The notes under the pieces are model-generated. The model ran no database searches. It had not been told where the DNA came from and saw only the letters and a program-made list of their open reading frames with translations. Source: an uncultured Lentisphaerales bacterium (GTDB lineage Bacteria > Verrucomicrobiota > Lentisphaeria > JABSQK01 > UBA12247). From it: a stretch of 64,000 nt of DNA. Position 1 is the first letter of the stretch. Every line of letters begins with the position of its first letter. The position numbers were made by a program, and so were the translations under genes. The stretch lies in NCBI GenBank assembly GCA_943788985.1, contig CALSSJ010000018.1, positions 1 through 64,000 on the forward strand, in the 5' to 3' direction. This document shows positions 45,119-64,000 of this stretch, piece after piece.

Positions 45119-45129
45119 TGTTGCCTTCG

Positions 45130-45952: not shown

Positions 45953-45988
45953 CAGAGCCAGGCCTACTGGAGCTGGAGCGAAGCGTCA
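45953..45988 (+). repeat. 36-bp repeat, copy B
   Basis: CAGAGCCAGGCCTACTGGAGCTGGAGCGAAGCGTCA. Confidence 0.85.
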
Positions 45989-46032
45989 AAAAAGGCAGGC
46001 AGAAAAATGAAAGGCAGGCCATCCCATATGGA

Positions 46033-46068
46033 TAGAGCCGAACCAACTGGATTCGGAGCGCAGCGTCA
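46033..46068 (+). repeat. 36-bp repeat, copy C (diverged)
   Basis: TAGAGCCGAACCAACTGGATTCGGAGCGCAGCGTCA, 27/36 identical to copy B and 80 bp downstream of it. Confidence 0.6.
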
Positions 46069-46143
46069 AACATCCTACTACGGCACCCCACAGTTTAATT
46101 TTTCTGCCTCATAATCTTTCTGCCCCTTGTGGTCAGTAATTGA

Positions 46144-46452
46144 TTATTGGCGGTTCTCAGCGGCCCCCTGGCGATCGCGCCAGTTCTCCGGATTGCGGGC
46201 CGCGTGTAGGACCCCCAGGATGAGCACTTCGTCATCACGTGGGTCGTAGAGTATGAAATAGGGGAAACGATTTATGTTGCACCGGCGGGCCCGAGACGAG
46301 ATACGGGGCTAGGCTGTTGGGAATTGGTCGATCCGCCGAGCGCCCCGCTTAACTTCCTCAGCGAATTCGTGACCGAGGCCCTCTCGCTGCTCGTTGTAGT
46401 AGACGATGGCCTCTGCGAACTCTTCCTCGGCAACCGCCAGAAAGCGAATCAT
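46144..46452 (-). pseudogene. RelE/ParE family toxin with a premature TAG at codon 48
   Basis: Manual translation: MIRFLAVAEEEFAEAIVYYNEQREGLGHEFAEEV...QFPTA*PRISSRARRCNINRFPYFILY...VLILGVLHAARNPENW. Not in the ORF track. Confidence 0.88.
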
Positions 46453-46676
46453 CAGCCGATTTCCAACCGCGCGTAGACATCCTCAGCCGTCGATGCCTGG
46501 ATCTCACCGCGTTCGTAGGCATCAATTCGTGCTTCCGCCTCGGTGGCCCAAGCAGCTGCCAGAGCGGGGTCTCGCGGGCTCTCGAAACTTGCAAAAAGGC
46601 GATCGATAAGCTGAGCCCGATCCGCTGGTCGCAACGAAAGCGCTCGATCAAGTACAGCTTCTGCTTCTGTAGTCAT
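46452..46676 (-). CDS. Addiction-module antitoxin (TIGR02574-like)
   Basis: ALSLRPADRAQLIDRLFASF...AWATEAEARIDAYERG; TGATG overlap with the toxin start. Confidence 0.9.
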   Translation of the reverse strand: MTTEAEAVLDRALSLRPADRAQLIDRLFASFESPRDPALAAAWATEAEARIDAYERGEIQASTAEDVYARLEIG

Positions 46677-46711
46677 AGGTTATGCTCCTGATAGTCACGC
46701 ACCTAATTGAA

Positions 46712-46739
46712 AATTTAGTCTCCAGCCGAGCGATTGCAA
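46712..46739 (-). promoter_or_regulatory. Putative promoter of the TA operon
   Basis: TTGCAA-16 nt-TAAATT, then an AGGAG RBS before ATG 46676. Confidence 0.45.
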
Positions 46740-47111
46740 GGTGCACCTGTGGCCATCAGGGCTCGGTGGTTCGACAGCGCGGCGGTCTCTCTTTTTGCCT
46801 CCTCGCCAGAATTCATGGGTTGGCTTGAGGCTGATTACCCTCGAAATGTTGTGGCAGCGAAATGTGTCGCCTTGATTCTTTAGCTGCTGAGGGGGCTGGG
46901 GAACCTCCCCAGGCTCAAATAATGGTTCAATTCATTGCTCAGGAAACCAGCATCCTTCAAGGCGACCCACAGATTCTGGAGAAGAGCCCTCTTTTTTCAT
47001 TGTGAGGATTCAGTAGCGATCTTAAAGCTGCGCCGAGACGCGGAGACATTTCCGAGCCGTGGGTGCAACTTGGCAGCAGCGATATGCAGCTCAATACGCG
47101 TGGGGGCGTCT

Positions 47112-47516
47112 TCAATTTGAACGATCTCGGTAGTGGCCTGTGACACGGGCCCCGGGCGAAGGCGGCGTGAGCACGCGGTCCAGCGATCTCGGTATCTGGT
47201 GTCTGGCCCTCTGCCAGCACAAAGTCACCAGAACGAGAAAGCCGCGCAGTAGATTGTGAAAAAAACTGACTCGGACCAATCCTTTCCTCTTTGCGTTCTT
47301 TCCCCGGCCACCTTTTCTGGATTGCTTCTCTCTTTCCCTGGCTTGAATCGCTTGAGGCGCTCTTCTTGTCGGGGCATCCACTCTTCTCGGATGTGGCGAC
47401 TCGCGGCATAGTCCCCTAAAGACGAGCGTCCCGATGACCAACGCGGCGATCGCGAGCACGTTAAGCGTCATTGACACCCACCTGAGAAGTCTGAGTTTTC
47501 GTATTGTCTTCTTCAT
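47112..47516 (-). CDS. Hypothetical membrane protein (probably frameshifted)
   Basis: MKKTIRKLRLLRW followed by a hydrophobic helix; lies downstream of the cassette array. Confidence 0.35.
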   Translation of the reverse strand: MKKTIRKLRLLRWVSMTLNVLAIAALVIGTLVFRGLCRESPHPRRVDAPTRRAPQAIQAREREKQSRKGGRGKNAKRKGLVRVSFFHNLLRGFLVLVTLCWQRARHQIPRSLDRVLTPPSPGARVTGHYRDRSN

Positions 47517-47529
47517 TGAGATGTCCCGA

Positions 47530-47703
47530 TCACTGGACCCCGCCGGTATTAGCCGATGGGAAGTCGATCAGGATCGACCCAATGGCCTTGATAGCACAGG
47601 CAAGTCGCGCCTCAGAGCGCAGCGTCTGCAGTTTGCCGCGAATGTCCCAAATCTCACTAGCCAGGTAATCGAACTTGGCCCTTGTCTCTTCAGCTTGCGT
47701 CAT
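47530..47703 (-). CDS. Small cassette ORF (57 aa)
   Basis: MTQAEETRAKFDYLASEIWDIRGKLQTLRSE...; ATG is 6 nt after the attC-like R'. Confidence 0.45.
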   Translation of the reverse strand: MTQAEETRAKFDYLASEIWDIRGKLQTLRSEARLACAIKAIGSILIDFPSANTGGVQ

Positions 47704-47709
47704 AGGTGC

Positions 47710-47757
47710 GAGTTACTCTCAGGTCTCCCGCTTGGCGGGAGCTCTGCCACGTTAGCG
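47710..47757 (-). repeat. attC-like site (48 bp, decayed R')
   Basis: CGCTAAC-GTGGC-AGA[G]CTCC-CGCCAAGCG-GGAGACC-TGAGA-GTAACTC. Confidence 0.55.
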
Positions 47758-47769
47758 TTTCGTTGCGGT

Positions 47770-48042
47770 TTAGCAGAACTGCCCATAGTGCGGGGCCCCT
47801 TGCAGCGTTGGTATGTATGGCCAATCAGATTTGGACGAGAGGGCTTGCCCTCGCAGCGTCGACCTCTTCTTCGGTCAGGTATAGGCCCCCAAGATCGTTG
47901 CCACCGTTGACTGCATAGAAGCGCACCGGCGCCTCACCAAGTTGTGCATTGATTATCGCGAAGAGAACGTAGGTAGCCCTCCCCCAGCTAGCTCAGTCAG
48001 ACCTTGCGCAATTCGATTAACCATGAGTGCGTATTCATTCAT
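47770..48042 (-). pseudogene. Cassette ORF, frameshifted hypothetical protein
   Basis: MNEYALMVNRIAQGL... joined to IINAQLGEAPVRFYAVNGGNDLGGLYLTEEE...WPYIP; starts 8 nt after one attC and stops 12 nt before the next. Confidence 0.5.
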
Positions 48043-48050
48043 TTAATGTC

Positions 48051-48129
48051 ATCGAACGTTTAATCTTCACCCGACGAGGCGGCGCGCGTCAGCGCGCTCG
48101 CCGAGTTCGGGTGTAAGGCTTGGTTCGCT
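48051..48129 (-). repeat. attC-like site (79 bp)
   Basis: AGCGAAC-CAAGC-CTT[A]CACC-CGA...GCGCGCTGACGCGCGC...TCG-GGTGAAG-ATTAAAC-GTTCGAT: long imperfect hairpin. Confidence 0.75.
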
Positions 48130-48201
48130 TTTCGGCCTGGGGGATTCACCGCTCGAAGGTGAGGATTCGACAGTAGCAAGGCATCAACATGCGCTCGAGC
48201 T

Positions 48202-48411
48202 CTATCGGCAATGAGGGATTTGTATTAGCTCTATCACTGTACCTTCAGGGAAAGATCTCCCTAGGTGCATGAGCAGAAGACCAGGCGTTACCAATGCGAT
48301 GCACATTGCGATCGTACCAGGATTAAGCATCGCTTTGGTCCAGGCATATGCCCAAACTCTGCGCCGTGCAGATTTTCGCACTTCATTCAAGATGTAATCA
48401 GGGTATTTCAT
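48202..48411 (-). CDS. Cassette ORF, hypothetical membrane protein (likely truncated by a frameshift)
   Basis: MKYPDYILNEVRK...; ATG is 7 nt after the R' of attC 48419..48466; AT-richer than core genes. Confidence 0.5.
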   Translation of the reverse strand: MKYPDYILNEVRKSARRRVWAYAWTKAMLNPGTIAMCIALVTPGLLLMHLGRSFPEGTVIELIQIPHCR

Positions 48412-48418
48412 ATTTCCG

Positions 48419-48466
48419 AGCGAACGCTCAGCTCTGCCCCTTGTGGGCAGCAGCTGATTGTTCGAA
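48419..48466 (-). repeat. attC-like site (48 bp)
   Basis: TTCGAAC-AATCA-GCT[G]CTGC-CCACAAGGG-GCAGAGC-TGAGC-GTTCGCT: L arms pair perfectly apart from one bulge. Confidence 0.7.
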
Positions 48467-48469
48467 TTT

Positions 48470-48722
48470 GATTCGTCGTCGGCAGTCCTCGATCGCCTTG
48501 TCAGTCTACTCTCTCGCGCGTGTGTTCAGTTCAGGCTCGCCCCGGGTCAGTAGGTCCTCCAGATCGCGCGGATGCGTAAGCGCGTTCCAGGCGGCCCTTA
48601 CCACCGGATCATTGGAGTTCCACGGTGGCGTCGCCAACCGCTGGAGAACGCTTTCGCCTTCCTTGACGGCGGAGCAGGGGGCCCCGGGACAGGTCATTCC
48701 ATAATTGCTGGATTCTTTGCAT
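48470..48722 (-). pseudogene. Cassette ORF, frameshifted hypothetical protein
   Basis: AGGA RBS + MQRIQQLWNDLSRG / SAVKEGESVLQRLATPPWNSNDPVVRAAWNALTHP, reading into the next R''. Confidence 0.45.
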
Positions 48723-48754
48723 TGGCGGTGTCCTGGCAGTTGGAGTCAGCGCTG

Positions 48755-48815
48755 GGCGAACGCCCGCGCTCAGCGGGGTGGCCCTTGGGCCATCTGGTGG
48801 CGTGCGTGGTTTATT
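48755..48815 (-). repeat. attC-like site (decayed)
   Basis: AATAAAC-CACGC-ACGCCACC...TGGCCC-AA-GGGCCA...GCTGAGC-GCGGGC-GTTCGCC. Confidence 0.45.
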
Positions 48816-48979
48816 TTGCTGTTCATATCGGAAAGGTGCGTGTTTCGCAGGTTGCCGTCAAGCCTGACGGCTGGATTTCGGGCGGTTGGCTCGGGCTCGC
48901 CGATTGCCGCGGATTCGGGGGGATTGACTGCAACTTGCGGTATCCGCAATATTGGGCGCGCGCGAGTCGGAAATCAGGA

Positions 48980-49865
48980 TGATGGATATCGGATGTCCCC
49001 AAGCCGCAACTGGATGGTGCCCCACGATGGAAAACACCCTGTGTCTGGATACATTGACAAGGGCCCTGGCCACTGGATGGTGCCCGCAGATCATGAACAG
49101 CGACCAAGGCAGTCAGTACACCAGCGCCGCCTGGATCAAGCGCGTTCAAGGGGCGGGCGTTCTTGTCAGCATGGATGGAAAGGGACGTTGGATCGACAAT
49201 GTCCGCATCGAAAGGCTTTGGCGCAGTGTCAAGTATGAAGACATTTACCTCAAGGCGTACGCAACACCGCGTGAATTGGGCAAAGGCCTCGCAGACTGGT
49301 TTGAGCGCTACAACAACCCCCGCCCGCATTCTGCACTCGACTATCGGACACCGAGACAATTCTACACTGAGGAAACTGCAATGAGCACTTTGCGCTGGCT
49401 GCGGCCTTCGGCCGCCATAGGGCTTCGCCCCAAACCCCAAGGTTTTCAAGGCATGGCGGCAACTCTTCAATGTTGCCACCTTGGGAGAAAAGTGGGGGGA
49501 GGCTGGCGACTCCCCCACGGTGCCGACATTGCGTCGTTACCGCTCCGGCTATCCCTCGGCAAGTTGCTCCTCAGCAGAGCTCGCTTCCGTTTCTCCGGAA
49601 CCCACACCGTACACCAAACCCCGTCATTGCAACCGGATAGGAAGGAACTACCGTACCACTCAGCGACCCGCGATTCAATAAGAATTACCGCCACCTGGCT
49701 CCGGCAACGGCACCACCTCTTGCCCCCTTTTATGGCCGCTGTTTTTGAAATCTGTCGTGCGGTAAGGTGTCCAGGCAGGATTACCACAGGTGCCGTTTCG
49801 CTCCGGCCGAAGACGGCCTACGCGAAGCGACCTCATCAACTCAACTGCTGTCTTGACTCACTCTA
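48980..49865 (+). mobile_element. IS3-family transposase remnant (C-terminal integrase core and 3' region)
   Basis: PQIMNSDQGSQYTS, SMDGKGRWIDNVRIERLWRSVKYEDIYL, YNNPRPHSALDYRTP; N-terminus missing. Confidence 0.9.
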
Positions 49866-49869
49866 AATA

Positions 49870-51760
49870 CAATACACTAAATTAAACATAGATCTGAGAT
49901 CACCTTAGGTAGGTTTTAACAACTGGGTGGGATATCCCCAACGAATTATGGAATAACCATTTAGGAAATATGCTATGAGTACTTACAAAAACCCTCAGTG
50001 AGAAAATGTTCTGTTTTGCGGGAAAAAAACTTAATCGATCGAAGAATGAGATTTGTGATCAAATGGAGTGCATCCCCAATTTAGAGGTGCTACTTGATGA
50101 ATATAAGCAAGTAGCTGCTTATTTGCAGGATAAATCAGGCGAAATGGAGAATGACTTTCGGGCACTTGTTCAGTGTCGATTGAAGTTCGAAAAAAAAAGC
50201 CGCACTTCACCGGGCTTGATAGCTGTGTTTTTGTCCTACCTCTTGATGCCTTTCTGTTTGGGTGCTTCTTTCATCAACTTTTTTACCAAAGGTACGCAGC
50301 GTGTCTATGATGAGGCATGTAAGTTATTCGAAGGTTTGAATGAGGAAAGCAGTTGTGAATACAGATATATGCACTAACGAGAGTCTTTATGTTTCAATAA
50401 TTAAGTATCTTGATCCTGACTTGAGGAAGTTAATAGCTCCAAGGTGGGATAAGGTTTTAGAAAAAAAAGAGTGCTGGGCTGGATGGGAGTACTCCAAGTC
50501 GCGATATTACCAACATGGCCGTTCTCAGTTGCTTACTTAACGGTGCTGTCGATGTTTTGTTTTTTCAGTGGCGGATGTTGTCTACGCATGCTTTCCATCC
50601 TGGCCTTGTGCCATCGGAGTCCATCATTGCAGCTATGCAGATGATCCCATTCGCACCATCTGAATCGATGTTTTATGGGCTTCTGGTCTTAACGTTACCA
50701 TACTTCTTTGGGGGTTCCGCTGAGGGGAAGCTGGTCTTTTTATTTTTAGGACCTTCTGCTAGGATTGCTTTTGCTACAAGCCTTACATTGGTTGCCCTTT
50801 TGGTGTAAATGCAGTTTATTGCTTAATTGCTGGCTTATACTTAGTGGCCTTTTTGATTTATCGCAGCGAATCTTCGTCTGACCACCCCGTTCGGAATATG
50901 GGCGTGCCAATCGAAGTGGAATAAAGATCAAATACATATACGGCTCCGAGGATGAAATCTATGGGGAATATTAGCGATGCCCTGGCAGCTGGATTGAAAT
51001 TTTTGGAATGTTGAGATTGAGGATAAAGAGAAATGGATCGAATCCACACGGAACAGTGATATACCGAGGATACAAGATACGATCGAGAAACTGCAAAGTG
51101 AGATTGATATGGAAAATGCCCGGTGGGAAGGTCTGAGTGAGGTTGATAAATTGGCTGAGATTAAAGTGCATGAAGAAATAAAAGACTCTGAGAAATAAGC
51201 AAAAAAATGACGACCTAGTCGCTAAAGAGTTGATGGAGTCTTCTAAACGCCAAGCTGCTGCAGCTGAACGTCAGGCTCAATCCACTGAGAATGCCTTACG
51301 GCCAGCAGGTTTCAGCTGCGCGTGACGCTGCCAGAGCTCAAGAACAGCAAGCCGCTGCGGCAAAAGGATCTGGCTAGAACGCAAGATAAGGCGGCTCGAG
51401 ATCTGGCTGGAACGCAAGAGAAAGCGGCAAATACATGCGTGTATTGTAGAGTCAGTGGTCCAGTTGGGGCCCCCTGTCACAAGAGTCCACACGGACAACA
51501 TCGATTCGGTTAATTTTTGATGCAATTTACTTTCCGGATTTCAGACACTCAGATTTTGCTGCCTTGTTAATGTCTGCCTTAATAGAATCAAACCCTTGTG
51601 GGATCATTGCGGCTAGGCTGAAGTCGCCTATTTTAGCGATGCTCATTGGCGCTATGCCTTTGCGTTTGAGCGATATGTCGGCGATCTGTTTTAATAAGGT
51701 AAGTCTTTTTCTGGGGGTGTATCATTAATTAAAACTCTTTCAAAATCGCTACTGAATTTA
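49870..51760 (+). other. AT-rich foreign segment with decayed hypothetical genes
   Basis: Visibly lower GC than the flanks; broken ORFs 50006..50377, 50340..50540 and 51322..51513. Confidence 0.6.
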
Positions 51761-52107
51761 TCTGCCGTGGGTTATAGCAGAACAATACGCTTATCACTCT
51801 TCATTGTCGTTGCTGAGTCAGCGCTGAACGCCGGCATCTCCCAATGCGCGGAGCGCATTGGGAGAATGCCGTGGCTGGAATTTTTGCTGTTGGTTGCTGG
51901 CGATGTGCGGACTCCGCAGATTGGCGTCAAGCTTGAGCGCGGACTTTCGGCGATTATTCGCTCGTTCGCCGCCGCTGCCAAGAATGTCAATCTATTTTTG
52001 CGCTGCCCCTTGGTGTTTGCCTATCGTGTCGTGACTTCACATGTTGGTCAAAGCTCCGGAAAATCTGTTTGGGGTCGCGCAATCTCGACTGCTGTTCAAA
52101 ATGCTCT

Positions 52108-52215
52108 GAATGTCCAATTTCCCAACAAGGAATGTCCAATTTCCAATGAAGACAGCGGAGCACGCACTCCCATACCTTGGACATTGGAAATTCCTTGTTG
52201 GCTGTTGGATGTTTC
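52108..52215. repeat. Palindromic element built from AATGTCC/AATTTCC units
   Basis: GAATGTCCAATTTCCCAACAAGGAATGTCCAATTTCCAA ... TTGGACATTGGAAATTCCTTGTTGGCTGTTGGATGTTTC. Confidence 0.7.
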
Positions 52216-52936
52216 GGCGGAAGTCGAGATTGCGCGTCGCCATCTTGGCCTTGTGCAAGGTTTTCCGGAGCTTTGGTTGGTACTTCGCCGCCATCGGATG
52301 TTGATCTGTGAAATAGTCCGAAAAACGTGCGCGTTGAGAGAGGAGGGGCAGATTGCCAAAGTGGCCCCGACATTGATCAGAATCTGTCGCCGTAATGAAA
52401 CGCTTGAAGCTTATGGTGCCCGTCAATCACAAAATTTCACCAGCCGCAATCTATGGTTCCCGTGATAGCAATTGGTCGCTGACCGTCATTGATCATTTTT
52501 TCGATAGCGCTCGATTCTTTCGAATTTGAGACTGTCGACCGGCTGAGTATAGACCAGCGTGTGACCAAGTGGGTAGAAGTGATCGCTGTCTTGGTCTGGC
52601 CACCATTTGGAATCGTAGGTGATGAAGTCATAGTCACGGCATTCGGCAACGAAGTGCAGCTGATACTGCCTGGAAACAAATAGCTGCAATAAGGTGTGGA
52701 GCTGCACATGTATCGGCACGTCCGCCCTGAGGTGTCCATCAAGTAAGTGACCGAAGTGAATGCAAGGATTGTTCAAAATTGGATGCCCCGGCACGGGCGA
52801 GATATTGCATTATGCTTCCCTCGCAGTCTGGCCAGTTGAAGGCAATGGGATCCCCCCCAACGAGCAGCATCGAATTAAATTATCCGCCCCGCAGATCGAG
52901 CAGCGAGAACGTATCTGTTAGTGCGAAATCTTCTGG

Positions 52937-52995
52937 ATTCAACGCTATGATCTCCCATTGCGCGTTAGCGCATTGGGAGCATCATCTGGTTCGTT
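52937..52995 (-). repeat. attC-like site (59 bp)
   Basis: AACGAAC-CAGAT-GAT[G]CTCC-CA..TGCGCTAACGCGCA..TG-GGAGATC-ATAGC-GTTGAAT; same L core as 7484..7542. Confidence 0.75.
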
Positions 52996-53384
52996 AATTA
53001 CGCAATTCTGCCGGTATTCCACTGACTTCGTTCTGCAAAATCGGGTAAAGACCAAGGCTGTTGTGCTGTCCTCATGCCATGCCTCCTCCTCCCGCCACTC
53101 GACAACCCAGGCACCGTCGGAATCGCCTCTCTGTGTCACTTTTAGGACGGCAACGCTCGCTTGAGCCGAATGCGAAAGCGTTGAGCGCCTCGTCTTCGCA
53201 ATCGAATTCCTCGTGCCAGCCATCAAACCCGACCGTAAATCCTGGGGGGGGGGGACCGTCAACCACTCAGTAAAACCCAGCTTCGGTTGGGCGGGGCCCC
53301 AATGGCGATATGATCGTCGGTTGCCTGATACGACAACTCAGGGGAGTTGGCCAACTTGGCTTCGATCTTCTCGATGGTGGTCAT
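52945..53384 (-). pseudogene. Cassette ORF, frameshifted hypothetical protein
   Basis: MTTIEKIEAKLANSPELSY / GFTVGFDGWHEEFDCEDEALNAFAFG / LKVTQRG...DSTTALVF...EYRQN; reads into the attC; GTTCCGC lies just before the ATG. Confidence 0.6.
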
Positions 53385-53719
53385 ATCAGTGGCGGAACCA
53401 AGGGGTATCTGGACAGCTGGCAGATGGTGTGCCAGGCGTGCGGTGAAGTTGCTAAAACAGTGAAGTGTAGGTGAGGGAAAGCGGAGGGCGCAAGCAGGGA
53501 TGTTGACGGAGGCCGGGTTCAGGTGTCAGATGTAGCTTGACGACTACCATGCAAGAAAAACTGCGGCGTCAGCCTGGCCCAGTTTCGCCGCCGTTGGTGC
53601 GGGGGGGAAGGGCGGCGGCTGCCAGGAGAATCAAAGAAATGCGGGGGGCCGCACATTTTCTCAGCAGGCAGCTTGCGATGTTCAAGGGTCGACCTGGCGG
53701 CTCACCCCCACGGGACCGA

Positions 53720-56130
53720 CTACGGGGCCATACGGCTGATGCGCAGGGCAAGGTCGCGTTGCAACGGGGGCAGGGCCAATGACTAGCTCGCCGGAATCGG
53801 TCACGTCTAGCTGCGTGGTGGAAACCTCATCGCTGCCCCAGGTTTCCCAGAACTCGACGTTGTATCGGCCTGGCTTGAGGCCGGTGAGGGTGAAGGAGGT
53901 GTCAGCAATGAGATCGAAGCGATCGGGCTCGGTCGCCGTCGCAGGATGATAACGATCGCCCACGAAGCGTTTGTATTGGCGGGTCTGCGCTTTGAGAATT
54001 CCGCGCCAATCCATCCGGTTGAGCTTCTCGGGGGAGCGGAGACTGGTTTTGGGCATCTTCATAGATCCATGCCCAAGCGGTTTCGTCAGTATGCCGGTAG
54101 AAGCGCTCGCAGGTCGCGGATGCCGTCCTAGTTTTCTCAGGGAGGACAGCCCCGTAGTGCCACTCTTTGCCGCGCATCTCTGTCCCCGCCACGAAACGGG
54201 CAGCCGTGGCATGGAAGCGGTCGAGGATTTTTGGCAAACACTAGATTCCACCACCAGGGATATGGCGCGCCAGCGGTCCGCTGCATGAGTCCAGCCCAGA
54301 GACCATCGTGAATATGTTGAGACATTTCCTGGACATTGCCAGCAATCGCACTGCCGCCATACTCCTCAATGATGGCGGGGTTTGTCGAACTTTCGCAGGT
54401 ACTCGGTCACCTCATGAAAGCGGTCAATGGCGCCGTTGGTCTCGGCATAGGCCGCAATCTGGGGTGAAGTCGATTTCGGGCATTCGCCACATCCCGGAGT
54501 CGCCAAAGTTGCCCGCGTACATTGTCGAGATGGGATGCTGTCCGGTATCATAGGTCCGGAGGACAGCGTGCATTTCTTTATGCCAGGCGCGGGTGGGAAC
54601 GCGCTTCGCCCCGACAGCATCCACTTCGATCCAGGTGGTCCAGCCAAAGATGGTGGGATCGGCACCCCAGCGCGCGGCAATGTAGCGAAAGCGCTGATGA
54701 AAACAGGCGCATCGCTTCCGGATCGGTCATGACCTTACGACGATCCTCCAGTGGCCCACCGTGCACACTGTTGTAGGGGTTTTCATTCCACTGCCTGTCG
54801 TAGGTGCTGGCAAAAGGCCCGTGATTCTGCAGGGCCAGATCCACGACAATGCCATGGGCAGCAGCACGCTCGAAGATCCAGTCCAGCTGCTGGGCATTGC
54901 GCAAATTGTACTGACCGATTCCATGATAGCCCGGCACCGTCTTGTGCCACTCGATTCCACCAAACCAGGGCGCCATCCAGATTCGCGCCAGATTGATGCC
55001 GGACGCGCCCATCTGGTCGATGTAGCCCGTCATGGCTCGCGCGCCACCGTTGACTGAAGGCAAGGGATAGTCACGATCCCGAGGGCTGGGCATTGTCAAT
55101 CGGGGGAGCGCAGGTTGATGCCAAGCGGATAGAAGAATTCACCATTCTCATAGGAGAAGTAGCGGTGGTCATCCGGGTCGACCTGGATAAAAACCGCGAG
55201 CCTGGGAAGGGGGCGACCTCCCAGGTCTGCCATGCGGTCTTGACCTTTCCGCCACGATCATCGTGTCCGGTCAATCGCCACCGGTAGGTCCCCGATTCGC
55301 GCGGCGTATAGCGCACGCGCCACTCCGGCGGCCCGACCGGAAACAACAGCTCGTCGTCGCCTGGATAGGTGGCCCGGTAGGCTTGAAAATAGAAGGCAAC
55401 CGCTCGGGTGGTTTCACCGTCGGGGCGGCTGGGATCTCGGGCCGCAACATCAATAGCCCGAGCATCAAAGGGGTTCTTGTAGACCCGGGGAAAGCGTGAA
55501 GCGTGCCTCTGCCATGACGTTCTGGCTGGCAGTTGAAAAGGAACTCAGAACGCTGGCGGCCAGCGGCGCTGGCGCAGCTGGATCTGGCTCCAGAGAAACG
55601 TCCCGGATCTCAACCCCGTTGATTCCGTGATCATGGCTGAATAGTTTCAGCCCGACCGTGCGCACGCGGCGCAGGCTCCAGGGACCAAACTCTTGGCCAT
55701 CGTGCTTCAGCGGGTACCAGTTTTGCTGCAAATCAGCGGTCACGGTGATCTGCTTGCCTTGGCGCACACATTCGCTCACATGCTGCTGGAACCAGCGCTC
55801 GTCGCCATCGCGCAGATGCACAATCGCCTTGAACACCGTTGTCTCGTCAGCCAATTGGCCCAGTGGCTCAACCACGAGTTTAACCTTCGCATTGTGCAGC
55901 CAGTTTTTCTTCGACGGTGAATTCGACTTCGCCCAGCGGGGACATCATGGTGCAGGGCCCGCTTGTTGAATCTGCTGTTCGAATTCAAAGTGCCGGGGCA
56001 GGTAGGAAGCCCCCAGGACCAGGGCCACAGCAGCCGCGAGAATCAGGGCCAGGCTCAGATACCGGCTTCTCAGCGAGCGATTGGCCGGGGCTGGAGTGGG
56101 GGCCGAGGTGGTCTTGGCGGTCGTATGGGG
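53720..56130 (-). CDS. TM + CBM-like + DUF5060-like + clan GH-A (GH5-like) hydrolase region, many frameshifts
   Basis: YKNPFD, EWRVRYTPRESGTYRWR, YFSYENGEFFYPLGINL, GINLARIW, NPYNSVHGGP, RYIAARWGADPTIFGWTTWIEVD, PAIIEEYG, YNVEFWETW, LPPLQRDLAL. Confidence 0.75.
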
Positions 56131-57496
56131 GGAGGGCCATGTGCAGTCTTCTCCCAGTAGAACGGTGCCCAGAGGTGCTGGAGGACGCCTTTCCAGGCAG
56201 CCAGGCTCATCAACGCCCAGTACAGGGGCAGCCCGAGGGCGGGCAGGCACAAGCCGTATCATCCCTCTCTGCCAAGCCCCGATGGCGTGCACGAGCATGA
56301 ACAGGAAATTACACGTCCCCTAACACAACGACAGCTACATACAGATAGGCTGTGTGGGGAGAGGAAGGATGGAAGATCGCTTCAGCTCGAACGGCGCCAA
56401 CAGCCAGCAGCAGCCAGCAAAACGGTTGCATGAGCAAGGCAAAGACGTGGCCGCCGATCACCAACCACAGGCACAAATACTGCCAGATTCCAAACTCGCG
56501 GATACCGTGTGACGGGCTGCGCGTGTGAACTAGCAAGGTCTGCCAATACCCCTTGACCCAACGCGACCGTTGGCGCAGCCAAATGGCCGGGCAGCTCACC
56601 GCTTCTTCCCACGTTGTCGAATTCAGCACCCGCGTTTCCAGGCTCTGGCGCGCCATGTGCATGCCCAGGTCGCAGTCTTCGGTCACGTTCCAGGCATCCC
56701 AACCGCCTAGGTTTTGTAATGTCTCCGTCCGAAAGTGATTGGAGGTCCCGCCCAGCGGAATCGGGGCGCCCAGGGAGTGCAGCCCCGGCAGGAAGAGATC
56801 GAACCAAACCGTATACTCAAGTGTAAACCAACGGGTCAGCAGGTTTTGCCGGGCATTGTAGTAGTTTAGACAGGCTTGAAGGCAGGTGACCCCCGGCAAG
56901 CGCCGAAACGTCGCAACCGCCTTCTTCAGTTGGTCGGGGTCGGGTCGGTCTTCTGCATCAAAGATCACCAGAAACTCGCCTCGGGCACATTCAAGGCCAA
57001 AATTGCAGGCGCGAGGTTTGGTTCTGGGGATGCCATCAGAGACGATCACGGTCGAAATCCATGCTGGCAGCGTAAGCATGGCCACGGCAGCTTGGGTTTG
57101 CTGGTCATCTTCCTCGAGCAAGAACTGGACATCGAGTTTCTGCTGCGGGTAGTCCAGTTGCGACAAGCTGTCGACCATCGGCCCCACCATTCCGGGCTCC
57201 TGATACATGGGGACGAGAATCGTGTAAACCGGCAGACTCTCCTCATCCAGCAAGGCCAACTCTGCGACGGACAGGTCTTCCAGATCATGGCGGATCAGTC
57301 CGCTTAGGATACTGACCAGCTTTACGGCGACAACCAGCGCAAAACCGCCGAGCAGCACCAAGTCAAGGCTGAGGCCAAGCAACTTCCGGTCATAGAGCCC
57401 AAGCCCAGCAGTTGCCAGCATCAGCACAATCACCAAGAAACGCTGACCAACGCTCCAGGTCGTACGGGCAGACTGTCGTGAATTCAAACCGGGCAA
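56070..57496 (-). CDS. GT2 processive glycosyltransferase (cellulose-synthase-like), frameshifted C-terminus
   Basis: PVYTILVPMYQE, PRTKPRACN, IFDAED, PLGGTSNHFR, NVTEDCDLG, QRSRW; C-terminus PLYWALMSLAAWKG...PFYWEKTAHG in another frame. Confidence 0.9.
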
Positions 57497-57715
57497 TGAG
57501 AGTCCTCGGGTGGCAAAAGGCGACGGAAGCCAGGCGGCAAGCGCAGGAGAAAATTAATAGCCCGCGAAAGGCGCGAAACAACGCGATTGTGGATATTTTG
57601 GGGTAGGGGAGGGGGAAGAAAAGTCGCCCGCGAGCCGAACTCAGGGAGATGGGCTCCCAGCAATGAGGCAGCGGATCCGCAAAGACACGAAACGAGGATG
57701 GGGGACGGTGGGGCA

Positions 57716-58117
57716 CTACGATGGCTTTCGAGCAGTATCCAGTACGATGCGCTCCCATTCGCGATTTGGCTGATGACCGAAGTTGACGAGGAGACCGAGA
57801 CGATAACGAGTTGCATTCAGATAGTTGTGCAACTGAGCGCGACGTTCGTCACATAGCTTCGACACTGATTTGGGTTCAAGGATAGCTTTGGCATAGCAGA
57901 TGAAGTCCGGGATGTATCGCTGCTTCAATTCCGGTCCACGATCGCTGAGCTTGAGTTGCGGTTGTGCCATGGCGGAGATGCCTTGGGTATCCAGCTCAAT
58001 CTTCATGCATTCCTGATAGACAGGCTCAAAAAAGCCACAGGCGGTATCTTCGGAAACCTCAAAACAGGCACCGATAATCTGATACGCTTCTTTCCGATAC
58101 ACCACATCCTTATTCAT
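57716..58117 (-). CDS. GxxExxY protein (PD-(D/E)XK-like), possibly degenerate
   Basis: YQIIGACFEV, CGFFEPVYQECM, YIPDFICY, ILEPKSV, AQLHNYL, LGLLVNFG. Confidence 0.9.
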   Translation of the reverse strand: MNKDVVYRKEAYQIIGACFEVSEDTACGFFEPVYQECMKIELDTQGISAMAQPQLKLSDRGPELKQRYIPDFICYAKAILEPKSVSKLCDERRAQLHNYLNATRYRLGLLVNFGHQPNREWERIVLDTARKPS

Positions 58118-58427
58118 GGCTCTTCGCGAGTTTGGGTTATTCATCATCTTCCGTCCCGAGACAATACAGCTACCGTCACATCTCCTTCCGGCAAAGAGGA
58201 ATGGCCGACGAAGCACGCGGATGAAGATATGATGTGTCAGAAAGAGAAAGGGATGTATTGCACGCGAAACGACGCGAAAGTGGAACCGCAGAATTTCGTT
58301 TCGCGGGCCCTATCTTTCCCACGCCCCTACAGTCCCTTTTCCTTTCCCCTTTCGCGGGCGATTTCCCGTCGAAGTGTACGGACAGCTTGCGCGACCGATC
58401 ATGCGGCGGATGGCGCTGAGAAGTGTC

Positions 58428-61025
58428 TCAGCCTTGATCGAACTTAGCCTTCACGATCCACGTTCCCGGTTGAACAGCGAACGTGACATAGCACTTGCTG
58501 TTTTCCCGAAAGGTCAGACCGGCAATTCCTGCACGCGGGGTACCACTTTGCCAGACGGTCGTTCCGTTTGCCTCGACCCGGGTGATTGTGGAACCAGTAC
58601 CTTTGGGGATACCGATGATGGCGGTGGTGTCGGCTGGGGAGGTCAAGGTCATGCTGAATGAAGCTGGCTCATTGCGCAGTTCCAGAGCGATGTTCCCCTT
58701 CACCGCGGGGACCGTGGTCTTGATGTACTTCAGAGGGCCCATCTGTGGGAGGACGTGGTAGGTTCCGTAGCCGGGCGTGACCGGAGCCACACCTGCACCG
58801 TATTGTGACAGCAGGGTTAAGGCACCGCCGCACCAAGCATGGTCAATGGTGCCGCCGCCGTGGCCGCCAATCCGCCAGTCCTCCCAGAGGGTGGTGAACG
58901 GATGATCGGTCATGATCTTAAATCGCTTCTTGGTTCGGGTGATGGCATCGTCCTCGAATCGCATCACGTACAGGGCTTCGCCGACGTACTTCTCCATGTA
59001 GGGGCTGCTGTGTTCCTCGGTTCTGAGGACCTCGCGAATCGCATCGTATTGCTCGGGCTTGGCCAGGCCGGCGAGGACTGCCAAGGCATGCCCACGATCA
59101 TCGGTTTCGCCCTTGTAGTCTGGCGAGCGGTATTCGGTGCCGTTCCAGAAGGTTGTATTGAAGTGTTGCTCGATGCTCTTCATTCTGGCTTCAATGCCTG
59201 CCACATCGCCTTGTGCGCCAACTGTCTGGGCCATGTTCAGCTGTCCCTTAAGGGCCAGGTAATACCAGCTGTTGCACAGGATGGTCATGTCCTTGTTATC
59301 TCCCCAGTCGCCCCAGGTCCAGCCGCCTTTGCGTGGCACCACGAGGCCATCGTCGCCCAGCTTCCAGACCGATAGATAGCGCGCCACCGCGGGATAAACC
59401 GCGCGGATCGTCTTGATGTCGCCGGTATACTGGTAGTAGGTCCAGAAACCAAAATAGCCGACCGAGTTGAGCATCTGCATGGGGAGCTCGTTGTGCCAAT
59501 TTCCCGCAGGAACCGGGGAGTAGATGGTTTGGTCTGCCCGCTGCCAGTTCATCAGCTCAAGGATGCCCTTTTGAGCCAAGAGATTACTGCGAGGATCTAG
59601 CGCATAGAAGGCCTCGCCCATCTCGTTGACCATGTCGCCCCACCACTGTGCGCGCTCGCGATCGGGACAGTCGAAGTAGGTATCACGCATAGTGATGTAT
59701 AAGGTCCGCAAGGCCTTCTGGCGGTAGTGATTCAGAAATTCATCGTCGCACTCGAAGACGCCAGTGAACTCGGCATTGTAGCCGGTCTCCCGGTATTGCA
59801 ATGCGAGAATCTTGAATCCAGCGGGAATGGTGTAATGGGCTTCGTGACCGTTCATCCACCCCAGGTTCTCGTATTGCTGTACGCCCTGCCGCGTCACATA
59901 CTCAGCGCGCACATTGGGCGATCCACCGCCACTGTAGTTGTCCATGCGAATGTCGATGAGTTGTCCCCCTGGGCCTTCGACCTTCAGATATGGCGTGATC
60001 TGAGCGTTATAGGGCAGCTTGGCCTTGATCGTGCTCCCGTCTGAGACGGTCGGTAAATCTGCGGCGTTCGCATAGTCTTTTAGACCAAAGTCTTTCCACA
60101 GCGGAATCACACGGTGCACCAGTTGGTTCCATGGGCTGCACGGCGGCTTGCCGTAGGTGCCCGCAGTCAGCCAGACTGAATCGTCGAATCCCGGATTTTG
60201 CCAGCCGAGCAAGTCGTTCCTGGCATCAAACCGGATATTGGATTCAGGCAGGCGAAAATTCGGCTGCTCGCCAGCTGTTTTTTCATAAGCTGGGTGCGTG
60301 ATGGCCTTCCAGTCGCTGTCACTGAGCAGCGGCGTTCCGTCCAGATCCGCATCGAACACCAGACCAGCCTTGCCGCTGCTGTTGTGGCTGAAGCCGTGCT
60401 TGCCGAAGTACCAAAGCAACACAGCAATCGTGTTGTCGCCTTCCCGCAGATGTGGCGTCAGGTCCACCTGATCGAAATAGGTGTCGTCGCGGGTTGGCCC
60501 GCGCTTGACTTGGCCTTCAAAGACCACCAGCGTGCCATTGATCCAGAGCCAATACTTGGAATCTGCGGCGATTCGCGCGCTCGCCTGCTGGGGCGCTGCG
60601 TCAAGCTGAACGACCTTGCGGTAGCAACTCCAGTGGTTTGCAGCCTGGTCGTTCGGACTCTTCGAGGCCGGTTGTTCCTGGCGAGTCAGGAGATCAAACT
60701 CGTGGTTCTCCGCAACCGACTGCGTCATCTGCTTGCCGTCAACGGTGTAGGCCAGTTCCAGAGTCTTTAGCGTCCCAAGTGCGGGATCGCCGCCGGCTGT
60801 CGCGTTATCCGCGACGACTGTGAAGTCGCCAGAGGCAATGGCCTGCTGAAAGGTCTCCGTGAGGTCAACCCGCCGTCCCGGGTCGCTGCTGACTCCATAG
60901 AGGGCCTGTGTAATTCGTATCTCTGGGATGTGCTGGGCAGGTGCTGACAGCGCAGGGACGCCAATCCAAGTGGCGCGCCACGGAGTTTCAGCCAGACTGC
61001 TCGACGTTGTCATCAGTACACTCAT
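58428..61025 (-). CDS. Alpha-L-rhamnosidase (GH78) with an N-terminal lectin-like insert
   Basis: IAADSKYWLWING, YFDCPDRERAQWWGD, TTLWEDW, HAWCGG; immediately downstream of rhaA. Confidence 0.9.
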   Translation of the reverse strand: MSVLMTTSSSLAETPWRATWIGVPALSAPAQHIPEIRITQALYGVSSDPGRRVDLTETFQQAIASGDFTVVADNATAGGDPALGTLKTLELAYTVDGKQMTQSVAENHEFDLLTRQEQPASKSPNDQAANHWSCYRKVVQLDAAPQQASARIAADSKYWLWINGTLVVFEGQVKRGPTRDDTYFDQVDLTPHLREGDNTIAVLLWYFGKHGFSHNSSGKAGLVFDADLDGTPLLSDSDWKAITHPAYEKTAGEQPNFRLPESNIRFDARNDLLGWQNPGFDDSVWLTAGTYGKPPCSPWNQLVHRVIPLWKDFGLKDYANAADLPTVSDGSTIKAKLPYNAQITPYLKVEGPGGQLIDIRMDNYSGGGSPNVRAEYVTRQGVQQYENLGWMNGHEAHYTIPAGFKILALQYRETGYNAEFTGVFECDDEFLNHYRQKALRTLYITMRDTYFDCPDRERAQWWGDMVNEMGEAFYALDPRSNLLAQKGILELMNWQRADQTIYSPVPAGNWHNELPMQMLNSVGYFGFWTYYQYTGDIKTIRAVYPAVARYLSVWKLGDDGLVVPRKGGWTWGDWGDNKDMTILCNSWYYLALKGQLNMAQTVGAQGDVAGIEARMKSIEQHFNTTFWNGTEYRSPDYKGETDDRGHALAVLAGLAKPEQYDAIREVLRTEEHSSPYMEKYVGEALYVMRFEDDAITRTKKRFKIMTDHPFTTLWEDWRIGGHGGGTIDHAWCGGALTLLSQYGAGVAPVTPGYGTYHVLPQMGPLKYIKTTVPAVKGNIALELRNEPASFSMTLTSPADTTAIIGIPKGTGSTITRVEANGTTVWQSGTPRAGIAGLTFRENSKCYVTFAVQPGTWIVKAKFDQG

Positions 61026-61205
61026 TAGAATTCACATTCCTAGGTTTATGATTGCTCTGTATGTTTGAGATGTGGTGCGGGAAGAGGCCCGCGACGTTGA
61101 TTTACCGTGGGGCCGCATGCCACCGAGCCTTTCTACCCCGGCGAAAGGCACGATCAGTTGCCGAAGATCTTCTGGCAGCTACCGGGGCAACGCGCCAATG
61201 GCTCT

Positions 61206-62465
61206 CTAGCTGCGTAGCGAAAGGACGTCAGTCTCGTAGGCTTCCATATCAGCCAACCAAGCGGCACCAACTGGCACGCCAGTCCTCTCACAGAGCATGT
61301 CCCAAACAGCGGCGAATGGCATGGACGTGAACTCCTCCATCAGGGCGAGGCGATGCGCGTTTTTTCCTTCCAACTCATAGGACTGAAGCTGTTCGGTCGG
61401 GTCCAGTAGGGCATAGAGAATGCCCTTCCGTGCGGCACGGGTGCCAGTCACGTAGGCACCGATACGGTTGATCGAGGCGTCGAAAAAGTCGAGCGCAATG
61501 ATCACGCGATCCCAGACATTGCCGCGCTGAATTTCGAGAAAGACGTTTTTGAGGTCGTCATTAAACAGCGTAACGTGATCGGAATCCCAACGGATCGGAC
61601 GGCTCACGTGCAGCAATATCTGATCCATGAACTGCAGATGGCTGGAAATCTTGCCGTGAATCGTTTCGGTGGGATGGAAGTGCCCCATGTCCATGCAAAG
61701 GCCAATCTTGCGGCTCAGGGCATAATCCGCGCAGAACTCGGCGGAACTGACCACATATTCTTCCGAGCCAATCCCAAAGAGCTTGCTTTCGATAAAGTCG
61801 ACGCACTTGGCTTTATCAACCGAATCATCGGCCATGATCTCGTCGTAGGATTTCGCCATGCGGGCGCGCGGCCCAAAGCGGTCAGCCGGGATGTCCTTAG
61901 CACCATCGGGTGTCCACCAGTTGACGTGGCACGGGGAGCCCTGCGCCTCTGCCATCGCCTCGGCGATTTTGCGGGATGCCTGGCCGTGCTTCACCCAGAA
62001 GGCCCGGATTTCGTCGTCACGGTTTGAGAGGGTGAAGCCGTCTTCGGCTTTCGGGTGGGAAAAGAATGACGGGTTGAAATCGAGCTTGATGCCCTCTTTG
62101 CTCGCCCAGTCCATCCATTTCTGGAAACCGGCAGGCGTCATTTCATCGCGATCGACATAATGATCGGCTTCGTAGTAGAGCGCATGCACATTGCAACGCT
62201 GGGTTCCGGGAATCAGCGACATCGCTTTGGCTATATCAGCACGGGCCTCCTCGCCATTGCGGGCACGGCCGGGATAGTTTCCTGTTGCCATGATGCCGCC
62301 ACCGGCCAGCCCTTCAGGCTTGGTTTCAAAGCCAACCACGTCATCTGCCTGCCAACAGTGCAGGGAAATAGGCAGTGCCAGTGCTTTCTCGATGGCTCTG
62401 TCCGTATTAATACCGAAGGCCGCATAGCGTTCCTTCGCCAGTTTGTATGCTTGTTCGACAGCCAT
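61206..62465 (-). CDS. rhaA: L-rhamnose isomerase
   Basis: ISLHCWQADDVVGFE, ATGNYPGRAR, FNPSFFSH, ESKLFGIGSE, DMGHFHPTE, HVSRPIRWDSDHV, LDFFDASINR. Confidence 0.97.
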   Translation of the reverse strand: MAVEQAYKLAKERYAAFGINTDRAIEKALALPISLHCWQADDVVGFETKPEGLAGGGIMATGNYPGRARNGEEARADIAKAMSLIPGTQRCNVHALYYEADHYVDRDEMTPAGFQKWMDWASKEGIKLDFNPSFFSHPKAEDGFTLSNRDDEIRAFWVKHGQASRKIAEAMAEAQGSPCHVNWWTPDGAKDIPADRFGPRARMAKSYDEIMADDSVDKAKCVDFIESKLFGIGSEEYVVSSAEFCADYALSRKIGLCMDMGHFHPTETIHGKISSHLQFMDQILLHVSRPIRWDSDHVTLFNDDLKNVFLEIQRGNVWDRVIIALDFFDASINRIGAYVTGTRAARKGILYALLDPTEQLQSYELEGKNAHRLALMEEFTSMPFAAVWDMLCERTGVPVGAAWLADMEAYETDVLSLRS

Positions 62466-62806
62466 CTCTTTCTCCTTTGGATACGATGCTGATAGACTAG
62501 CCTTGCAATCGATTATCCGCCTTGACGATATCGCCAAGTTGTAGCATGATCCTCCCATAGCCGCGCGCCTTGCGGTGTCTGCGGCCGGGAGTTCGGGACA
62601 CGGCGTGTGCCATGTCCTGAACTCCTTTTCTCGAATTATGGTGCTAAGCCAGCAGTCAGGGCTGCGACGTTGGCGCTTCCCTGAAACGCGGGAGACTCAA
62701 GTGCACCAGCCGAGGCCGGGCCTTGCTCGCGATACCCGATCCTCAGCCGTGCGACGGTAGAACCTTGACGCGAGCGAAGTTCAACTGGCAGACCTGAGTG
62801 TTTGGG

Positions 62807-63697
62807 CTACTTCAGCAAGTCGATAATCCGGTAGCCGCCCGAGAACCCGGCCTCAGACACGTATTGGACGCGCTCCTCACGGTAGGCGTCGGTGTGTTCA
62901 AAATGCACGTGGCCACAGAAGATGCCGGCCAGGTTTTTGCTTTCGCCTCGCATCAGGAGTTCATACGTCGCGAGGGTGCTCGGGTCGCTGCCCACGACTT
63001 GCCAATGCTCCCGTTTCTCCGCCGTCCAGCCGTGCGGGCTAGCCATCATAATCGGTGCCCCCCAGCTCCTCAGCACGGCCGGTGCGAGGGATTCGATCCA
63101 AATTGGAATATGAATGAACAGCAGGCACGGCTGCCCGGTGGCAAGCTCGCGGCGCAGAAACGTCAGCTGTTCGAGACTGATCTGGTAGGTGCTGTTGTCC
63201 AGCGCGATCAGACGCACGCCGCCCAGTTCCATTGACTGGCAAGCTGGCGTGCCGCCCGTCAGCCGGTGAAGACGCGGGTAGTACTCCTGGCGAACGGCGT
63301 CGGACCAGGCCAAATGTTGGAAATGCCAGTCGTGGTTCCCAGGCGTAAACAGAGTCGGTGCGCCCAGAGCCTTCATTCCGAGTTCGACGTGTTCGATGCC
63401 CGCCCATGCCGGGAAATCAATGATGTCGCCAGTCAGTACGCCGGCGTCTACGCCCAGTTCACGCGCTTCGCTCAGCGTTCGGTCGAAGACCTCGCGCGTC
63501 GATTCGCCATTGGGCGTGTGTTTGAAGAAGAGTCCTGGCCCGCGACTCTGGCTATACGGGACTGCTTCGGGGTCGCGATCATCTACCTCGGTCATATGGC
63601 TGTCCGTAAGGTGCAGGATCCTCAAGTCGCGCTCCAGACCCGAAATGTGAATGCGCGCTCGGTCGCCGCGTCCGGTCGGCTCGTGTCGAATGTCCAT
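62807..63697 (-). CDS. Calcineurin-like metallophosphoesterase
   Basis: LTDSH, TGDIID, PGNHD, FIHIP, CGHVH. Confidence 0.92.
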   Translation of the reverse strand: MDIRHEPTGRGDRARIHISGLERDLRILHLTDSHMTEVDDRDPEAVPYSQSRGPGLFFKHTPNGESTREVFDRTLSEARELGVDAGVLTGDIIDFPAWAGIEHVELGMKALGAPTLFTPGNHDWHFQHLAWSDAVRQEYYPRLHRLTGGTPACQSMELGGVRLIALDNSTYQISLEQLTFLRRELATGQPCLLFIHIPIWIESLAPAVLRSWGAPIMMASPHGWTAEKREHWQVVGSDPSTLATYELLMRGESKNLAGIFCGHVHFEHTDAYREERVQYVSEAGFSGGYRIIDLLK

Positions 63698-64000
63698 CTG
63701 TCGTGCTCCCGGAGTATTCCGTAGTCGTGGCGACTGCCGCCCAACAATGAGATGGGAATGTACCGCCTTCGCTGATTCCTTCACGCACTGGTGATAGAGA
63801 TTGGCCCGCTCTCGCAATCTATTGATGCGGCGCGTTTTCCCGCGTCGAGCGAGAGAGTCGCAGACTTTCTACACAAGACACCTATGCTACCGTGATTAAT
63901 CACGAGAGGAGATCGAAATGAATAACCCCAATCAGCTTGACTGCGACACGCCCAGACGAGCTGGCCTCGGCGACCAGTCCCAGTCGATAGTTGGTGAACC

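Follow-up and report, generated by a model that had tools for sequence, protein, structure and literature searches.

The locus and its reading frame

We analyzed a window of 64,000 nucleotides (positions 1 to 64,000 of the forward strand of contig CALSSJ010000018.1, assembly GCA_943788985.1, from an uncultured Lentisphaerales bacterium) and describe here one gene on its reverse strand, at 57496-53723, in which a family 2 glycosyltransferase (GT2) and a half resembling a glycoside hydrolase (GH) of family 5 belong to a single polypeptide of 1250 residues. The gene is continuous, its domains can be identified, its catalytic residues are conserved, and the fusion recurs in other genomes. Its layout is given below with residues numbered on P0001, the intact form of the gene; P0008 is a homologue whose structure was predicted with AlphaFold2 (AF2), ManDH5 is a bacterial mannanase of solved structure, TM denotes transmembrane, and pLDDT is the predicted local distance difference test.

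57496..53723, reverse strand: whole gene, 1250 codons plus 24 bases that are most likely spurious; TTG start at 57496, stop codon at 53722-53720
57305..57451, reverse strand: two N-terminal TM helices, residues 16-64 (hydropathy; helices 13-32 and 34-66 in the AF2 model of P0008)
56549..57226, reverse strand: GT2 catalytic domain, residues 91-316 (Pfam, invariant columns, Foldseek)
56196..56488, reverse strand: membrane region, residues 337-433 (hydropathy; AF2 model of P0008)
56136..56156, reverse strand: WEKTAHG motif closing the synthase module, residues 447-453 (conserved columns)
56005..56061, reverse strand: TM anchor, residues 478-496 (hydropathy 2.27; a helix in both AF2 models)
55525..55933, reverse strand: first beta-sandwich, about residues 520-655 (AF2 strands, pLDDT mostly >80)
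55269..55509, reverse strand: DUF5060 immunoglobulin-like domain, residues 661-739 (PF16586; aligns to the N-terminal domain of ManDH5)
54178..55191, reverse strand: GH5-like (beta/alpha)8 barrel, about residues 765-1100 (phmmer, AF2, Foldseek)
53723..54159, reverse strand: C-terminal beta-sandwich, about residues 1107-1250 (AF2 strands; inside the 626-631 columns aligned to ManDH5)

As the window is written, no single frame is open throughout 57496-53723, and the pieces of the protein are scattered over alternating frames down to 53723. The first piece is an open reading frame (ORF) of 395 amino acids (aa) at 57496-56309, a family 2 glycosyltransferase by its matches to PF13641 (1.1e-26) and PF13632 (8.7e-26). 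The synthase module ends in ...FYWEKTAHG at 56156-56136, followed by CCCTCCCCCC, and as written that frame closes 21 codons on at a TGA (56075-56073). A linker rich in threonine, alanine and proline and a TM helix (56061-56005) lie in another frame, with no ATG, GTG or TTG within ~55 codons upstream.

When longer homologues of the 395-aa ORF were sought, the search recovered P0001, a 1250-aa protein that is 100% identical to the ORF and carries both GT2 and DUF5060. A frameshift-aware alignment that skips the extra bases places P0001 on 57496-53723 with 1248 of 1250 residues identical; the two mismatches are the TTG start and Q500R, the latter being the one real amino acid change. The same alignment counts 24 frame breaks inside the gene, each a +1 duplication of the adjoining base, and zero missing bases. 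On the coding strand the extra bases are 15 C, 4 G, 3 T and 2 A, 19 of them in runs of at least 3 bases and 5 in runs of 2, and two of them (near 56320 and 56241) interrupt the membrane region that follows the GT domain. In this assembly the one protein is broken into gene calls of 395 aa and 136 aa, on a contig of 143,092 bases. These calls fall in the same cluster as P0001, where contigs from ENA, GEM, Logan and JGI yield the full 1250-aa call. One further ENA contig in this cluster (58,617 bases) splits the gene as P0126 (371 aa) and P0128 (899 aa), which suggests a single break in that assembly too.

The original prediction, which a model had drawn from the letters and their ORFs, was of a single fused gene of about 1250 aa. 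Every frame and motif that it described (the WEKTAHG end of the GT2, the linker, the TM helix with no start of its own and the hydrolase pieces) is present in the sequence, its stitched length agrees exactly with that of P0001, and both P0001 and the contigs of other sequencing runs pass WEKTAHG into the linker without a stop. It was right that frames are shifted, having noticed some of the shifts; the breaks number 24, however, not a few.

The 31-mers of this stretch occur in 20 public marine and estuary runs from 8 studies at fractions of 0.49 to 0.78, none exceeding 0.78. Contigs of four runs from four studies were compared with the window over 53600-57600, as follows.

Run X1: stretch covered by one contig; 27 one-base gaps relative to the window; 7 other letters
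Run X3: stretch covered by one contig; 29 one-base gaps relative to the window; 7 other letters
Run X5: main contig reaches 57322; 27 one-base gaps relative to the window; 8 other letters
Run X2: four long pieces; 26 one-base gaps summed; 6 other letters

All 12 of the one-base gaps that were listed (12 of 29) are common to the four runs, and nine of these 12 lie within 3 bases of the 24 in-gene events. Extra bases also occur outside the coding region, at 53643, 53686 and 53705 (past the stop codon) and at about 57599-57602, so the faulty stretch is wider than the gene and the defect is a property of this stretch of the assembly. The G+C content of the gene is 0.594 against 0.583 for the genome. 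The damage is local, because elsewhere the window keeps long intact frames (1913, 865 and 824 aa) and stretches of 2 kb or more that lack a 200-aa frame add up to only ~125 kb of the whole genome. Single-base duplications with almost no substitutions are the pattern of a base-calling or polishing fault, not of decay. Because an intact P0001 exists, every event is a duplication and all four other runs are free of them, the 24 breaks are, from the sequence comparisons, most likely assembly artefacts rather than marks of a pseudogene or of two genes. The practical lesson is that a ~4-kb stretch of this assembly with about 27 to 29 apparently spurious single-base duplications yields fragment gene calls.

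The synthase half

Processive GT2 enzymes bear the signature motifs D, DxD, TED and Q(Q/R)xRW. The N-terminal half of P0001 has a GT-A family 2 fold, with PF00535 (1.3e-08) matching in addition to PF13641 and PF13632, and its motifs read DAED (180-183), TED (272-274, within VTEDCD, 271-276) and QRSRW (309-313). Across 39 fused proteins, D180, E182, D183, E273, D274, Q309, R310, R312 and W313 are invariant, as are W447, K449, T450, H452 and G453 of the WEKTAHG motif. The NCBIfam models for PgaC/IcaA and cellulose synthase match only below threshold. The AF2 model of this half was made for the homologue P0008, not for P0001 (pLDDT 88.8), and in Foldseek it retrieves BcsA, the Chlorella virus and Xenopus hyaluronan synthases and Chs1 at E values of 1e-15 to 1e-12. 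On these matches the N-terminal half is a membrane GT2 of the BcsA, hyaluronan synthase and chitin synthase type, with a predicted polymerizing and translocating activity. Closer relatives of the window's GT2 bear MshEN-type (PF05157), FHA or GT4 domains where the hydrolase stands, and this synthase clade therefore accepts varied C-terminal modules.

The hydrolase half

The C-terminal half is homologous to ManDH5, which PDB entry titles describe as a beta-D-mannanase of family GH5 from Dictyoglomus thermophilum (9gmj, 9gpa, 9gpc, 9gpe and 9gpg among others, including complexes with mannobiose and mannotetraose and an E303Q mutant). By phmmer, residues 660-1097 match 9gmj/9gpc at E 3.7e-46. The AF2 model of P0001 residues 452-1250 (pLDDT 92, predicted template-modelling score 0.89) aligns with ManDH5 in Foldseek over 626-631 columns (E 9e-42; template-modelling score 0.89-0.90, target-normalized). 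Farther fold matches in Foldseek are to an uncharacterized Bacteroides hydrolase, GH140, GH2 and other GH5 entries.

In clan GH-A the acid/base glutamate follows strand 4 and the nucleophile glutamate follows strand 7. The acid/base candidate of P0001, E952 (54627-54625, in WIEVD), aligns with E303 of ManDH5, which is mutated to Gln in the E303Q entries, and the nucleophile candidate, E1039 (54364-54362, in IIEEYGG), aligns with the glutamate of the ManDH5 'GEFG'. All 39 fused proteins keep both residues, and so do three split forms added to them, 42 of 42 in all. The canonical 'NE' asparagine of the clan is replaced in P0001 by Ile951; of the 39 fused proteins, 30 have Ile at the position preceding E952, 4 have Gly, 3 Asn and 2 Ser, while it is Asn in ManDH5 and Ser or Thr in the three split relatives. 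A clan GH-A-like domain with both glutamates and an Ile-Glu pair had been proposed from the letters alone, and the ManDH5 match, the predicted fold and the invariance of the two glutamates uphold it. The C-terminal half is thus apparently a retaining glycosidase homologous to ManDH5 and predicted to be active.

DUF5060 is the one domain of this half to which Pfam gives a name. The Pfam GH5 model PF00150 gave no match in P0001, P0002 or P0007 at E 0.01, and among the 120 listed homologues it is precomputed only for P0085 and P0118. The DUF5060 model PF16586 scores 26.4 bits in P0001 (8.1e-06), just under its gathering cut-off of 27.2 bits, and passes it in P0002 (32.4 bits) and P0007 (45.3 bits); by hand count it is precomputed in 57 of the 120 listed homologues. 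The first beta-sandwich, which the original prediction had called a module like a carbohydrate-binding one, has no Pfam match and is matched by 45 of the 120 homologues in BLASTP. Pfam and NCBIfam, run on the window's fragments and on the split relatives, named GT2 and a weak DUF5060 only, leaving the barrel unnamed.

Topology and a proposed mechanism

Hydropathy gives two N-terminal helices, the GT domain, a membrane block at 337-433 and a strong helix at 478-496. The loop before this anchor (434-477) contains six lysines and arginines and holds WEKTAHG, and standalone homologues begin with a hydrophobic N-terminus. Because of the positive-inside rule and the analogy with NfrB, a GT2 of Escherichia coli discussed below, we infer that WEKTAHG is cytoplasmic and that the last 750 residues lie outside the membrane.

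We propose that the one gene would give one inner-membrane protein of 1250 residues. A processive, channel-forming GT2 with its active site in the cytoplasm would polymerize a nucleotide sugar and drive the chain through the membrane, one extra TM helix after the cytoplasmic WEKTxHG would lead the polypeptide outside, and the tethered retaining glycosidase would there cut or transglycosylate the emerging chain, releasing it or setting its length. The hydrolase would thus act on the product of its own synthase, a glycan with probable beta linkages and perhaps a manno configuration. We hold the explanation as a whole, namely a single synthase-glycosidase protein, tethered processing of the nascent chain and artefactual breaks in the gene, to be rather more probable than its competitors taken together.

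A bolder version is that the protein alone makes short or cyclic periplasmic beta-glycans, perhaps manno- or N-acetylmannosamine-configured, in marine and other bacteria of the Planctomycetes-Verrucomicrobia-Chlamydiae (PVC) group, with the GH5-like domain serving as a transglycosylase or cyclase. The change from Asn to Ile would then disfavour attack by water or suit a modified C2 substituent, and the lack of a conserved exporter or porin gene beside the fused gene fits a product kept in the periplasm. This version is speculative, as is the cyclic or length-controlled glycan of the original prediction, and we think it unlikely.

Fused and split forms among relatives

Counts of the fused form refer to the best 120 longer homologues of the 395-aa ORF, taken as clusters at 90% identity, with a match to the C-terminal module at E ≤1e-5. 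The C-terminal module of P0001 is present in 67 of these 120, and 63 of the 67 are at least 1200 aa long. Homologues carry source names from the Planctomycetota, Sumerlaeota, Kiritimatiellae and Bdellovibrionota; our alignments included P0007, which comes from Sumerlaeota and is 1245 aa long, and the nearest fused homologues among the matches listed are metagenome proteins of 71% and 69% identity. Three contigs of Planctomycetota or Bdellovibrionota (L027, L042 and L088) hold the fused gene as intact single frames of 1297, 1281 and 1301 aa. Homologues are therefore not always separate genes, the circumstance that the original prediction had named as fatal to a fusion.

In a FastTree phylogeny of the GT2 domain (127 rows, NfrB not among them), a single group with a support of 98 takes in 63 of the 67 fused proteins, and a 707-aa protein from a 3.6-kb contig also falls inside it. 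The four other fused proteins cluster with split forms from the window's relatives; therefore, fusion or fission happened more than once.

Among 40 relatives and the window's own genome, the GT2 piece has matches in 33 of 41 genomes and the hydrolase piece in 17 of 41. The best-matching relatives, of the window's order and class, have a separate GT2 frame of 463-543 aa (one of 710), which at the six loci that were read ends 5-22 residues past a WEKTAHG-type motif, and a hydrolase in a separate gene of 780-1323 aa. In G003 the two genes adjoin and overlap on one strand; those of G036, G006 and G009 are divergent neighbours. A tblastn search with the proteins of split relatives confirms the frame jumps in the window. 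The 40 relatives contain no match above 54% identity and no frame with both halves. Another 300 genomes of the phylum include 58 with matches at E ≤1e-30, most of them with both halves; by our reading of the table, about sixteen of the 58 have the halves within a few kb of one another. Such frequent neighbouring of the two genes supports a functional link between the halves.

Both halves share one frame of 1570-1612 aa at G060:C2:166502-170767, G190:C1:3670790-3675367 and G198:C80:46308-50465, a second, larger fused architecture in genomes of the same class, with ~300 extra residues. The window's own genome also encodes an intact split-type GT2 (a 491-aa frame of 47% identity, G000:C31:39406-40476) and a separate DUF5060-type hydrolase (an 801-aa frame, G000:C36:104301-104618).

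The split relatives had suggested that the locus is a pair of decayed separate genes. The intact 1250-aa P0001 overturned this, and the placement of the split forms on another branch of the GT2-domain tree further undercut the use of split relatives as a model.

Comparison with known systems

Bacterial cellulose synthesis pairs the synthase BcsA with a separate dedicated hydrolase, BcsZ. Like that pair, the fused family combines a membrane processive GT2 bearing QxxRW with what would be a periplasmic glycanase acting on the nascent polymer. The hydrolase of the fused family, however, is covalently joined or adjacent and comes from a different family, and the surroundings of the gene in the window, L027, L042 and L088 showed no PilZ domain, BcsB-like partner or outer-membrane porin. 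NfrB of E. coli, a GT2 activated by cyclic di-GMP (annotation of NC_000913.3), shares the overall synthase layout, and W-x-K-T-x-H ends its membrane module as well; there, however, the motif is followed by a cytoplasmic MshEN regulatory domain that binds cyclic di-GMP, not by a TM helix and a hydrolase. NfrB is only distantly related to the window's GT2 (22% identity, E 2e-06).

The relationship with ManDH5 extends over DUF5060, the barrel and the C-terminal domain, along with the catalytic glutamate pair that aligns with E952 and E1039. ManDH5 differs in being a soluble enzyme of 568 residues without a synthase or a TM anchor and in having Asn-Glu where the fused family has mostly Ile-Glu, and the structural alignment shows 22% identity.

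The closest known design is that of the NdvB or 'Orphan BcsA-like' cyclic beta-1,3-glucan synthases of Pseudomonas, which are built as GH17-TM-GT2. The logic proposed there is that the synthase feeds a tethered GH domain that cleaves and rearranges the chain (PMC10237404). On the topology proposed for the fused family, both designs place a cytoplasmic processive GT2 and a periplasmic TIM-barrel glycosidase or transglycosylase in one polypeptide, linked through a TM region; the GH is N-terminal in the NdvB type and C-terminal in the fused family, and in place of GH17 the latter has a GH5/ManDH5-like barrel, DUF5060 and two extra beta-sandwiches. The design principle is already described for GH17-GT2 proteins, and the same paper confirms the GT2-GH17 precedent cited in the original prediction; the fused family departs from it in its GH family, in the order of its domains and in its additional domains. 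Were the cyclase version correct, the fused family would be a second, independently evolved analogue of the NdvB type on a mannanase scaffold, an idea that we regard as doubtful.

A limited literature search found no paper on a fusion of GT2 with DUF5060 and a GH5-like domain, which agrees with the architecture having been called apparently undescribed; it likewise found none on ManDH5, including as a Dictyoglomus mannanase, and none on the GT2-GH26 fusions that had been cited as a second precedent. Source names for members of the family read only 'glycosyltransferase' or 'cellulose synthase/PNAG synthase-like'.

Gene neighbourhood

The fused gene has no conserved neighbours in the four loci that we compared (the window, L027, L042 and L088), and the system looks self-contained. 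Directly upstream of it in the window lies an intact 166-aa PD-(D/E)XK_3 protein at 57716-58216 on the reverse strand (PF13366, 7.5e-33), and farther upstream a rhamnose-use cluster at 58428-63817, also on the reverse strand, in which all genes are intact and which includes the following.

In 58428-63817, reverse strand: GH78-type alpha-L-rhamnosidase-like protein, 865 aa
In 58428-63817, reverse strand: L-rhamnose isomerase RhaA, 450 aa (1.4e-169)
In 58428-63817, reverse strand: metallophosphoesterase, 336 aa

In L088 the fused gene adjoins an AXE1 acetyl xylan esterase gene (338-1627, forward strand; 6.4e-39), and in L042 an alpha/beta hydrolase gene (10798-11658, reverse strand; 4.6e-17). 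These esterase-type neighbours, which are missing from the other two loci, could hint at an acetylated product.

On the other side of the gene, 45062-53700 is ~9 kb in which long open frames are almost absent; an IS3-type integrase-core fragment lies there (48952-49866, forward strand, named from its translation), along with short repeats common to many other contigs of the genome. A plot of G+C at third codon positions by phase, in which 45-53.7 kb was checked for a like error pattern, gave a weak signal, and homopolymer counts by region did not discriminate. Scans for Rfam families and tRNAs gave no hit in the window. Farther off, the 1913-aa open frame of the window lies at 27125-32866 on the reverse strand.

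Weighing the explanations

The frame breaks could be explained in ways other than an assembly fault. They might be genuine slippage in a heavily decayed pseudogene of this strain, with the intact forms belonging to other strains. The gene does adjoin the ~9 kb without long frames, with its IS3-type transposase fragment and dispersed repeats; Q500R is a real amino acid change in the window, the 6-8 substitutions relative to the other contigs bespeak a slightly different strain, and the remaining long genes of the window are intact. Decay, however, would add deletions and substitutions, and the mixed lesions expected of a pseudogene do not appear: in the comparison with P0001, 24 of 24 lesions are +1 duplications with no deletion or larger lesion, and 1 amino acid has changed in 1250. 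The extra bases continue beyond the gene (53643, 53686, 53705 and near 57600), the listed insertions are absent from all four runs compared, and none of the 20 holder runs from 8 studies exceeds 0.78 of the window's words. We therefore consider decay improbable. It is more improbable by far that two genes are present, a GT2 stopping at the TGA of 56075-56073 and a hydrolase starting at the ATG in 'CATGG' (56137-56135), given another indel in the C run. That arrangement draws on the stop 21 codons past WEKTAHG in the frame as written, on relatives of the same order and class with separate GT2 frames and hydrolases, and on the overlap of both genes on one strand in G003. The intact form of the same gene, however, runs on as ...WEKTAHGLPHTTAK..., the two extra C's are absent from all four other assemblies, and the split relatives are only ~45-54% identical and stand outside the main fused group.

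A different objection accepts the fusion and denies that the outer domain processes the product of the synthase, making it instead an anchored catabolic enzyme of the mannanase type or an inactive glycan-binding module. ManDH5 is titled a degradative beta-mannanase, the canonical Asn is gone in most members, and the neighbours in the window (the rhamnosidase-like protein and RhaA) are catabolic. These neighbours vary, however, at every locus examined; both catalytic glutamates are invariant in all fused proteins aligned and in the split forms added to them; and many genomes have this GT2 clade and this hydrolase clade together, either fused or side by side, which is hard to explain without a common substrate. 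We judge a non-processing role to have a minor share of the probability.

Several observations nevertheless weigh against a tethered synthase-glycosidase encoded by a gene with artefactual breaks. With Asn replaced by Ile in 30 of 39 members, activity or specificity may differ from that of a mannanase. Plain hydropathy shows a weak extra helix at 415-433 in P0001, which, if it spans the membrane, would leave the C-terminal half in the cytoplasm, and the topology is drawn in part from the model of the homologue P0008 rather than from P0001 itself. Exporter or sugar-nucleotide enzyme genes are absent near the fused gene in the window, L027, L042 and L088, so the sugar is not indicated by context. 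The case for artefacts draws on contigs from other samples, and the errors cluster, for no evident reason, in one stretch of an otherwise well-framed genome. The limited literature search also found no experimental study of any member of the fused family.

Implications

If the proposed synthase-glycosidase is what this gene encodes, a widespread family, with at least 67 clusters at 90% identity and four phyla named, joins a synthase to a mannanase-type domain in one polypeptide. The 2025 structures of ManDH5 are the first of a solved relative for the hydrolase half, and comparisons of active sites and mutants can therefore be designed. A one-gene system of this kind would be easy to express, and its polymer, the control of its chain length and its possible cyclization would be directly approachable.

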